Position numbers: made by a program. 64,000 bases of DNA from Escherichia coli. Its GTDB lineage: Bacteria; Pseudomonadota; Gammaproteobacteria; Enterobacterales; Enterobacteriaceae. The stretch lies in NCBI RefSeq assembly GCF_002854065.1, contig NZ_CP024147.1. One strand, given 5' to 3'. Below, in pieces: positions 2,904-5,900 of this stretch; the stretch's first letter is position 1; each line of letters opens with the position of its first letter.

Positions 2904-5900
2904 TAATTTCTTGCGTTATTTTCGGCACCTTTTATGTAGCGAAGGTGCCGGAATATATTCTCTTTTGTTACTTATTTGTATACCGTGCACAATATTTTTA
3001 TCCCTCATATTTATAGGGTAAATTACCTGTAAAGTAGTGTCTAATTACCCGCCTCGCAAATTCCAGTTTTCAAATATCTATTTCAGGTCAAAAGATTGAA
3101 TTATTGGTGATGCTGCCAACTTACTGATTTAGTGTATGATGGTGTTTTTGAGGTGCTCCAGTGGCTTCTGTTTCTATCAGCTGTCCCTCCTGTTCAGCTA
3201 CTGACGGGGTGGTGCGTAACGGCAAAAGCACTGCCGGACATCAGCGCTATCTCTGCTCTCACTGCCGTAAAACATGGCAACTGCAGTTCACTTACACCGC
3301 TTCTCAACCCGGTACGCACCAGAAAATCATTGATATGGCCATGAATGGCGTTGGATGCCGGGCAACCGCCCGCATTATGGGCGTTGGCCTCAACACGATT
3401 TTCCGCCATTTAAAAAACTCAGGCCGCAGTCGGTAACCTCGCGCATACAGCCGGGCAGTGACGTCATCGTCTGCGCGGAAATGGACGAACAGTGGGGATA
3501 CGTCGGGGCTAAATCGCGCCAGCGCTGGCTGTTTTACGCGTATGACAGGCTCCGGAAGACGGTTGTTGCGCACGTATTCGGTGAACGCACTATGGCGACG
3601 CTGGGGCGTCTTATGAGCCTGCTGTCACCCTTTGACGTGGTGATATGGATGACGGATGGCTGGCCGCTGTATGAATCCCGCCTGAAGGGAAAGCTGCACG
3701 TAATCAGCAAGCGATATACGCAGCGAATTGAGCGGCATAACCTGAATCTGAGGCAGCACCTGGCACGGCTGGGACGGAAGTCGCTGTCGTTCTCAAAATC
3801 GGTGGAGCTGCATGACAAAGTCATCGGGCATTATCTGAACATAAAACACTATCAATAAGTTGGAGTCATTACCGAATTATTCACTGGAGACGATTCGTAA
3901 ATTCGCTGGATTTTTGACTAAAGTTTCTTTAGGATTTGTCTCATCGTATGATTAATTACACCAATCGTTCAACGTCTTGCTGATAAGTGATGGCGATTAT
4001 ATGAGGTTAGCAATGCCTTCTGGAAATCAGGAACCCCGCCGCGATCCTGAATTAAAACGTAAAGCCTGGCTGGCGGTTTTTCTTGGTTCTGCACTTTTCT
4101 GGGTGGTTGTCGCACTGCTGATTTGGAAAGTGTGGGGATAACTATGGTTGGTCAGGAGCAACTGGAGTCGTCACCATTATGCCAGGATAGTGACAATGAA
4201 CCAGAAACGAAACGGGAATGTTCCGTCGTTATTCCAGACGACTGGCAACTAACATCGCAGCAGCAAGCCTTTATAGAACTGTTTGCTGAAGATGATCAGC
4301 CGAAACAATAATTATCATCATTCTTATTACCCATTTTTAATGAATTACAGGGCTTTTAATACACCGCAGCAATAACAGGTTGAGTTATCTCAACACAAAG
4401 TAATAACCGTTAAGGGTGTAGCCTATGATCAACACAAATATGAAATATTGGTCCTGGATGGGCGCGTTTTCTCTGTCGATGCTCTTCTGGGCCGAACTCA
4501 TCTGGATCATTACTCACTGATCCCTGACCCCGTTGCGGCGGGGTTTTCATTTGCTTTGCCACAAGCTTTCTCCTCTTTTATCAATTTGGGTTGTTATCAA
4601 ATCGTTACACGATGTTTGTGTTATCTTTAATATTCACCCTGAAGAGAATCAGGGCTTCGCAACCCTGTCATTAAGGAGGAGCTATGTCGTCAACCCTACG
4701 AGAAGCCAGTAAGGACACGTTGCAGGCCAAAGATAAAACTTACCACTACTACAGCCTGCCGCTTGCTGCCAAATCACTGGGCGATATCACCCGTCTACCC
4801 AAGTCACTCAAAGTTTTGCTCGAAAACCTGCTGCGCTGGCAGGATGGTAACTCGGTTACCGAAGAGGATATCCACGCGCTGGCGGAATGGCTGAAAAATG
4901 CCCATGCTGACCGTGAAATTGCCTACCGCCCGGCAAGGGTGCTGATGCAGGACTTTACCGGCGTACCTGCCGTTGTTGATCTCGCTGCAATGCGCGAAGC
5001 GGTTAAACGCCTCGGCGGCGATACTGCAAAGGTTAACCCGCTCTCACCGGTCGACCTGGTCATTGACCACTCGGTGACCGTCGATCGTTTTGGTGATGAT
5101 GAGGCATTTGAAGAAAACGTACGCCTGGAAATGGAGCGCAACCACGAACGTTATGTGTTCCTGAAATGGGGAAAGCAAGCGTTCAGTCGGTTTAGCGTCG
5201 TGCCGCCAGGCACAGGCATTTGCCATCAGGTTAACCTCGAATATCTCGGCAAAGCAGTGTGGAGCGAATTGCAGGACGGTGAATGGATTGCTTATCCGGA
5301 TACACTCGTTGGTACTGACTCGCACACCACTATGATCAACGGCCTTGGCGTGCTGGGGTGGGGCGTGGGTGGCATCGAAGCAGAAGCCGCAATGTTAGGC
5401 CAGCCGGTTTCCATGCTTATCCCGGACGTAGTGGGCTTTAAACTTACCGGAAAATTACGTGAAGGTATTACCGCCACAGACCTGGTTCTCACTGTTACCC
5501 AAATGCTGCGCAAACATGGCGTGGTGGGGAAATTCGTTGAATTTTATGGTGATGGTCTGGATTCACTACCGTTGGCGGATCGCGCCACCATTGCCAATAT
5601 GTCGCCAGAATATGGTGCCACCTGTGGCTTCTTCCCAATCGATGCTGTAACCCTCGATTACATGCGTTTAAGCGGGCGCAGCGAAGATCAGGTCGAGTTG
5701 GTCGAAAAATATGCCAAAGCGCAGGGCATGTGGCGTAACCCGGGCGATGAACCGATTTTTACCAGTACGTTAGAACTGGATATGAATGACGTTGAAGCGA
5801 GCCTGGCAGGGCCTAAACGCCCACAGGATCGCGTTGCACTGCCCGATGTACCAAAAGCATTTGCCGCCAGTAACGAACTGGAAGTGAATGCCACGCATAA

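Follow-up and report, generated by a model that had tools for sequence, protein, structure and literature searches.

IS1 and IS5 insertions activate bgl or flhDC, and Gamas et al. are said to have described, in 1987, a pBR322 hot spot for IS1 insertion that adjoins an IHF site. At bglGFB and flhDC, insertions recur in either orientation in AT-rich, H-NS-bound DNA upstream of a promoter and relieve H-NS silencing (for bgl, PMC11043490, PMC9678765). H-NS-bound AT-rich DNA also captures transposons, and hot spots of this kind in Acinetobacter and E. coli gather many insertions without orientation bias, as shown for IS5-family elements (ISAba13, IS903, insH3) and not for IS1 (Nat Commun 2024, PMC11335895). 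The IS1 family itself, represented in E. coli K-12 by IS1A–IS1F, comprises elements of 768 bp with imperfect inverted repeats, insA and insB' reading frames linked by a -1 frameshift at an A6C motif, the Pfam domains Zn_ribbon_InsA, HTH_Tnp_IS1 and DDE_Tnp_IS1, and target duplications reported as 8 or 9 bp (PMC12428005).

We analysed a 64-kb stretch of an E. coli contig (64,000 nucleotides of NZ_CP024147.1; hereafter the window), in which an IS1 element, copy 1, occupies the spacer between cysB and the small-protein genes ymiA and yciX (Table 1). Copy 1 is very probably an ordinary, intact IS1 that transposed into an AT-rich, recurrently targeted spacer before the window's strain separated from its relative E. 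coli CUWW06, with an effect on its neighbours that is probably neutral or modest. By this account, IS1 would have entered the AT-rich DNA that separates the cysB terminator from ymiA-yciX-ymiC, its transposase making cuts staggered 8 bp apart whose repair would have left the GAATTATT duplication, and all of this would have preceded the split of the two strains. The most likely reasons for the choice of spacer would be that IS1 prefers AT-rich DNA, here DNA that is reported as H-NS-bound in K-12, and that insertions there are tolerated. The ymiA promoter region would have lost 199 bp of its upstream DNA to the insertion and kept the final 127 bp before the start.

Table 1. Features of the cysB–acnA interval and related IS1 features. 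Positions are window coordinates; for target duplications, the strand is the orientation of the inserted IS1, and the empty site skips 3106-3881.
Feature	Position	Strand	Basis
cysB, intact, upstream of the insertion	1932-2906	+	ORF and annotation
Terminator-like hairpin 3' of cysB, untouched, 150 bp before the IS	2920-2953	+	
GAATTATT, left copy of 8-bp target-site duplication	3098-3105		sequence
IS1 copy 1, complete, 768 bp, IS1B-like variant	3106-3873	+	sequence, length exact
IRL, left terminal inverted repeat, 23 nt	3106-3128	+	
insA, 91 aa	3161-3436	+	ORF and Pfam
insB' reading frame, DDE transposase domain	3355-3858	+	ORF and Pfam
A6C motif AAAAAAC, -1 programmed frameshift site giving InsAB'	3412-3418	+	sequence
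IRR, right terminal inverted repeat, 23 nt	3851-3873	+	
GAATTATT, right copy of 8-bp target-site duplication	3874-3881		sequence
ymiA, 46 aa by RefSeq start	4001-4141	+	annotation (K-12 b4522, PGAP)
yciX	4144-4311	+	annotation
ymiC, inside Rfam STnc180 match 4352-4554	4425-4520	+	annotation
Second IS1, 100% identical to copy 1, 9-bp duplication CTCTACTTC	38309-39076	-	sequence
IS1 target duplication	2983-2991	-	
IS1 target duplication	3093-3101	+	
IS1 target duplication, window's own allele	3098-3105	+	
IS1 target duplication	3882-3890	-	
IS1 target duplication	3884-3892	-	
IS1 target duplication	3886-3894	-	
IS1 target duplication	3908-3915	-	
IS1 target duplication	3909-3916	+ and -	
IS1 target duplication	3930-3938	+ and -	
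IS1 target duplication	3931-3938	-	
IS1 target duplication	3962-3969	+	
IS1 target duplication	3962-3970	-	
IS1 target duplication, between yciX and ymiC	4319-4327	+	
IS1 target duplication, between yciX and ymiC	4334-4342	-	
IS1 target duplication, inside ymiC	4460-4468	+	
IS1 target duplication, inside ymiC	4495-4502	-	

Copy 1 shares the family's length, repeats, reading frames, frameshift motif, domains and target-duplication size, and is structurally no different from the K-12 copies; K-12, however, carries no IS1 between cysB and ymiA. The original prediction had called the element complete, and the full 768 bp, both inverted repeats, insA, insB' and the A6C site are all present. The two repeats are imperfect (78% complementary over 23 nt). 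All three Pfam matches exceed the curated cut-offs: InsA matches Zn_ribbon_InsA (PF03811; 75 bits, E=3e-21) and HTH_Tnp_IS1 (PF12759; 105 bits, E=1.7e-30), and the insB' frame matches the full DDE_Tnp_IS1 profile, 1-131 (PF03400; 261 bits, E=2.3e-78). A promoter-like site on the + strand (CTGCCA-16-TATGAT, 3113-3140) overlaps the left repeat and is what we take to be pIRL, the insA promoter of IS1, and an exact match to the IHF consensus (3850-3862) lies at the right repeat. IS1A-type copies that other strains carry at nearby sites depart from copy 1 at 7-9 of the 768 positions; copy 1 is 100% identical to the IS1 of CUWW06, in which PGAP annotates a joined CDS, equivalent to window positions 3161-3858, as an 'IS1-like element IS1B family transposase' with a 'programmed frameshift'. 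The identical allele is therefore already annotated in RefSeq, and the feature is of a known kind. Copy 1 is a standard, structurally intact element that is probably still active.

The 8-bp duplication put forward in the original prediction was borne out, with an exact GAATTATT on both ends of the IS. The base 5' of GAATTATT is T at the left copy and C, the last IS base, at the right copy; the base 3' is C at the right copy and G, the first IS base, at the left copy. Because these neighbouring bases differ and the two pieces of the window-to-K-12 alignment overlap by exactly 8 bp, the duplication is 8 bp and not 9. The repeat alone is not significant, the 8-mer being too common (three occurrences in the 64-kb window against 2.7 expected, the third on the other strand); what counts is its position abutting the IS ends, together with the empty-site test. 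For that test, a 925-nt construct in which a single GAATTATT joins the two flanks was searched against 5,426 complete E. coli genomes. In six IS-free genomes it matched as an unbroken whole (100% identity), and its alignment reached ≥80% coverage in 5,392 of the 5,426. Some 30 genomes showed neither an uninterrupted match nor one divided by IS1. K-12 MG1655 likewise has a single GAATTATT at the insertion point (1,335,021-1,335,028), and two positions of the 318-bp cysB-ymiA spacer differ from K-12. The comparison with IS-free genomes that had been named as the check thus returned a contiguous site with one GAATTATT, both in K-12 and, at 100% identity, in six further genomes.

These results also bear on the idea that the GAATTATT repeat is coincidental and that homologous recombination, rearrangement or an assembly error, rather than direct transposition, placed IS1 here, which we regard as practically out of the question. 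Coincidence could draw on the AT-rich 8-mer being as common as chance predicts, recombination on the at least about 39 IS1 copies of the lineage, counted in CUWW06, as possible partners, and rearrangement on some other genomes in which an IS1-associated rearrangement has left the IS next to one flank only. However, K-12 and the six 100%-identical empty sites show the two flanks in collinear order, and the overlap is exactly 8 bp; the same junctions, moreover, occur in CUWW06, an independently assembled complete genome. An origin of copy 1 by recombination or assembly error is effectively refuted.

Direct transposition left copy 1 199 bp from the cysB stop codon (cysB ends at 2906), where the original prediction had given about 200 bp, and between the cysB terminator hairpin and ymiA, in agreement with the placement between cysB and ymiA-yciX. 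The predicted 140 bp to the ymiA start holds for an alternative in-frame ATG at 4014 and fails for the start that RefSeq annotates (ATG, 4001), where the distance from the IS end is 127 bp; ambiguity of the ymiA start site has been noted before (PMC4909307). IS1 displaces 199 of the 318 bp that precede the annotated start, so the genes are indeed separated from part of their upstream DNA as predicted. Because the K-12 alignment of 3874-5300, a stretch that takes in 4320-4683, is gap-free (98.7%), the upstream region of acnA is untouched, again as predicted. Cunningham, Gruer and Guest are said to have placed acnA P1, in 1997, some 407 bp before the start codon, which we take to put it near 4277: inside yciX, outside 4320-4683 and 400 bp downstream of IS1. 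No known sRNA is cut by IS1, the sole Rfam match, STnc180 (4352-4554), being well downstream. With this layout, cysB and acnA should be unaffected by copy 1.

The operon takes in ymiC besides ymiA and yciX. Its reported induction at low Mg2+ depends on PhoQ (PhoQP), with promoter activity upstream of ymiA and none immediately upstream of ymiC; deletion of ymiA or ymiC has no phenotype, and over-expression of YmiA delays growth (PMC11429745). Within the 127 bp retained downstream of IS1 lie three half-site-like direct repeats with 11-bp spacing (3915-3942), which overlap three-mismatch PhoP-box matches, and the hexamer that most resembles a -10 element (TATGAT, 3947-3952). Their location suggests that the core promoter of the operon is probably retained, as judged by scans that match no more often than chance. 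The PhoP-type half-sites are only a lead; a scan for KGTTTA-N5-KGTTTA with up to three mismatches is uninformative (161 matches against 135 expected). Between 2850 and 4700, the + strand has no promoter-like site other than that of the left inverted repeat, and no sigma-70-like or hybrid promoter was predicted across the right IS1-host junction by a consensus scan that may miss weak promoters. Expression of the operon is probably unchanged or altered at most modestly in a PhoQP- or H-NS-dependent way. Strains that carry the IS and strains that lack it provide ready-made promoter-truncation variants of a recently described, PhoQP-dependent small-protein operon.

IS1 has entered this interval repeatedly. 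We queried the 5,426 complete genomes with the IS-containing sequence and then with the IS inverted, and found IS1 in or next to the cysB-acnA interval in the + orientation in 385 genomes and in the - orientation in 29, which together are 414 of 5,426 (7.6%). Junctions were mapped at 20 of the 414 occupied loci, the opposite orientation showing as about 510 differences from the window's IS1, and events were counted without a phylogeny. The 20 sampled loci fall into 18 distinct site-by-orientation combinations, that is, at least 18 independent events (Table 1), with duplications of 8 bp in seven and 9 bp in eleven, and with seven + and eleven - orientations. Of these events, thirteen cluster in a 102-bp core of the empty site (3093-3105 plus 3882-3970) immediately before ymiA. 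Even if each of the approximately 58,500 chromosomal IS1 copies in the collection had arisen independently and landed uniformly, this core would be expected to hold at most 1.2 (P~5e-10). A single allele, 3909-3916 (+), accounts for 356 genomes, presumably members of the ST167/ST617 group, as several strain names suggest. Without this clone, the orientations are balanced (29 + and 29 - genomes). At three sites, IS1 has inserted both ways round and duplicated identical or almost identical bases (GATTTTTG, TAGGATTTG and CAATCGTT[C]). An orientation bias towards ymiA, apparent in the first census and the first eight loci, was a same-strand joining artefact and disappeared with the inverted query, which gave the 29 genomes and at least 11 - events. 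A literature search for ymiA together with IS1 found nothing relevant. The cysB/ymiA intergenic polymorphisms of an evolution study are point positions, present in its controls too, and not IS insertions.

To place these counts, IS1 was set in silico into a control, the AT-rich osmB-yciT spacer (268 bp, 37% G+C; the cysB-ymiA spacer has 35%), and both orientations were searched. The control carried IS1 in 16 genomes, from about nine events, which cut an apparently exceptional hot spot at cysB-ymiA to a modest, approximately threefold excess. Since osmB-yciT is also recurrently occupied, recurrent IS1 insertion is a general property of AT-rich intergenic E. coli DNA, of which cysB-ymiA is an example stronger by about threefold and not a singular one. 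The reuse of the same base pairs in both orientations argues for a structural target preference at cleavage over a selected regulatory outcome. A one-mismatch IHF-like motif on the - strand (ATTCAATCTTTTG, 3089-3101) overlaps the window's target site and is a candidate only. It recalls the pBR322 hot spot, but such motifs are frequent (80 consensus matches in 64 kb against 58 expected, or about one per 800 bp at one-mismatch quality), so the coincidence is weak evidence and no more than a lead. In K-12, the cysB-ymiA spacer is listed as one of 78 'promoter islands', marked as H-NS-bound from K-12 ChIP data, and as one of only three such islands without a foreign-gene association (PMC3661553). 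The spacer thus resembles the hot spots of H-NS transposon capture in being AT-rich, reportedly H-NS-bound and hit many times without orientation bias; the element here, however, is IS1, and a role for H-NS is putative (PMC11335895). As an IS1 target region occupied in 7.6% of complete E. coli genomes, it is a possible natural test bed for the parts that AT content, H-NS and IHF play in target choice.

The same clustering could be read as adaptive, IS1 upstream of ymiA having been selected because it rewires the PhoQP-regulated ymiA-yciX-ymiC operon, either by breaking up H-NS silencing or by read-through from the IS. We consider this improbable. Its appeal lies in the many independent insertions within about 100 bp directly upstream of ymiA, the threefold excess over an AT-rich control, an allele present in 356 genomes and a spacer listed for K-12 as an H-NS-bound promoter island (PMC3661553); YmiA, induced at low Mg2+ and growth-inhibitory when over-expressed, is also a protein whose level could matter. 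The 356-genome allele, however, is explicable by clonal expansion alone, and outside that large clone both orientations occur equally, in 29 genomes each. The insertions also differ in their expected effect, lying upstream of the putative promoter, between promoter and start codon (3962-3970) or inside ymiC, and the promoter scan predicts no hybrid promoter where the right IS end meets the host DNA. In two carriers ymiA is annotated as frameshifted, and neither a ymiA nor a ymiC deletion has a phenotype (PMC11429745). A selective role is therefore disfavoured: orientations are balanced, positions heterogeneous and identical base pairs reused both ways, as target preference would have it, and the control spacer behaves similarly.

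Recurrent insertion in either orientation into AT-rich, reportedly H-NS-bound DNA upstream of a promoter is common to bglGFB, flhDC and the ymiA locus, but some cysB-acnA insertions fall within ymiC or 3' of the putative promoter, and the insertions here are not known to activate ymiA-yciX-ymiC or to change its expression. Furthermore, IS5 also inserts at bgl and flhDC, whereas almost all insertions that our searches found at the cysB-ymiA locus are IS1. That the spacer is a selected IS1 'switch' region, tuning the low-Mg2+ envelope response in particular lineages, likewise seems to us improbable. If it were, the IS1 alleles, both that fixed in the 356-genome clone and the rarer one of the window, would alter how the membrane small proteins YmiA and YmiC are expressed under H-NS or PhoQP control.

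Returning to copy 1 as an ordinary insertion, its age can be bracketed by comparison with CUWW06 (NZ_CP182139.1), which matches the window at 99.96-99.99% identity over 50 kb, with 11 base substitutions. CUWW06 shares both the junctions and the exact IS sequence of copy 1, and is the only one of the 5,426 complete genomes (1/5,426) in which the copy 1 allele was found. The second IS1 of the window and an IS2-like element (20101-21431) are absent from CUWW06; since copy 1 is common to both strains and these two are not, copy 1 predates the strain split and IS1 has moved since. A second, identical IS1 with a duplication of its own shows, if indirectly, that the element has probably been active in the window's lineage. 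Copy 1 alone matters little, being one more IS1 in an IS-rich lineage, and serves as a clean lineage marker, common to CUWW06 and absent from the 5,425 other complete genomes. CUWW06 is a wastewater isolate from Thailand.

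Occupancy of AT-rich intergenic DNA by IS1 recurs away from the cysB–ymiA spacer. In the AT-rich osmB–yciT spacer (12181-12448), which served as the control for IS1 occupancy, the element was present in 16 complete E. coli genomes, representing roughly nine independent events, so recurrent IS1 occupancy looks like a general trait of such DNA. At the cysB–ymiA spacer itself, matches H95–H100 of an inverted-IS1 query place IS1 beside just one flank in several genomes, including strains ST540, W21, NT1F25 and JNQH497/498, a pattern that points to inversions or deletions mediated by IS1 with one end at this locus.

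A second IS1, identical to the copy between cysB and ymiA (copy 1), splits the glutamate-putrescine ligase gene puuA behind codon 9; across the junction the frame reads METNIVEVE, then GDAANLLI and a stop. The insertion knocks out the Puu putrescine pathway at its first step, and it is recent, because puuA is whole and IS-free at this position in the near-identical relative CUWW06 (NZ_CP182139.1). CUWW06 is also without the element in the spacer between fabI and a TetR-family regulator gene. This element has IS2-like ends and carries ORFs of 136 and 301 aa that overlap; from its termini we take it to be IS2. The RND efflux pump of the adjoining fabI–sapF cluster comprises an adaptor, a permease and an outer-membrane factor, and an internal stop is annotated in the adaptor gene of CUWW06.

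Downstream of the cysB–ymiA insertions, two strains with IS1 upstream of ymiA (B18271 and 98202) have this gene annotated as a pseudogene with a frameshift, a hint that some IS-bearing lineages can do without ymiA or are letting it decay. Rfam gives a strong match to STnc180, an enterobacterial sRNA, and this match spans the entire small-protein gene ymiC (4425-4520) together with its terminator (4526-4545). The 'sRNA' is thus likely to be the mRNA of ymiC, or else an RNA with a dual function. IS1 copies in other strains lie directly upstream of this match (4319-4342) or within it (4460-4502).

Coordinates of insertion elements and associated features (window positions; L002, L007 and L021, loci from other E. 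coli genomes with their own coordinates)
Feature	Position	Strand	Remarks
Second IS1	38309-39076	-	100% identity to copy 1
Its target duplication, CTCTACTTC	38300-38308 and 39077-39085		
Cluster between fabI and sapF	~21700-29200 (L021 20405-27897)		TetR-family regulator, RND efflux pump, MFS transporter
IS2-like element, 1,331 bp	20101-21431		Between fabI and TetR-family regulator gene
Its duplication, AATAT	20096-20100 and 21432-21436		
ymiA pseudogene, B18271	L002 1602-1741		IS1 allele 3909-3916
ymiA pseudogene, 98202	L007 1602-1741		IS1 allele 3962-3969
STnc180	4352-4554	+	Rfam, 202 bits, E=1e-43
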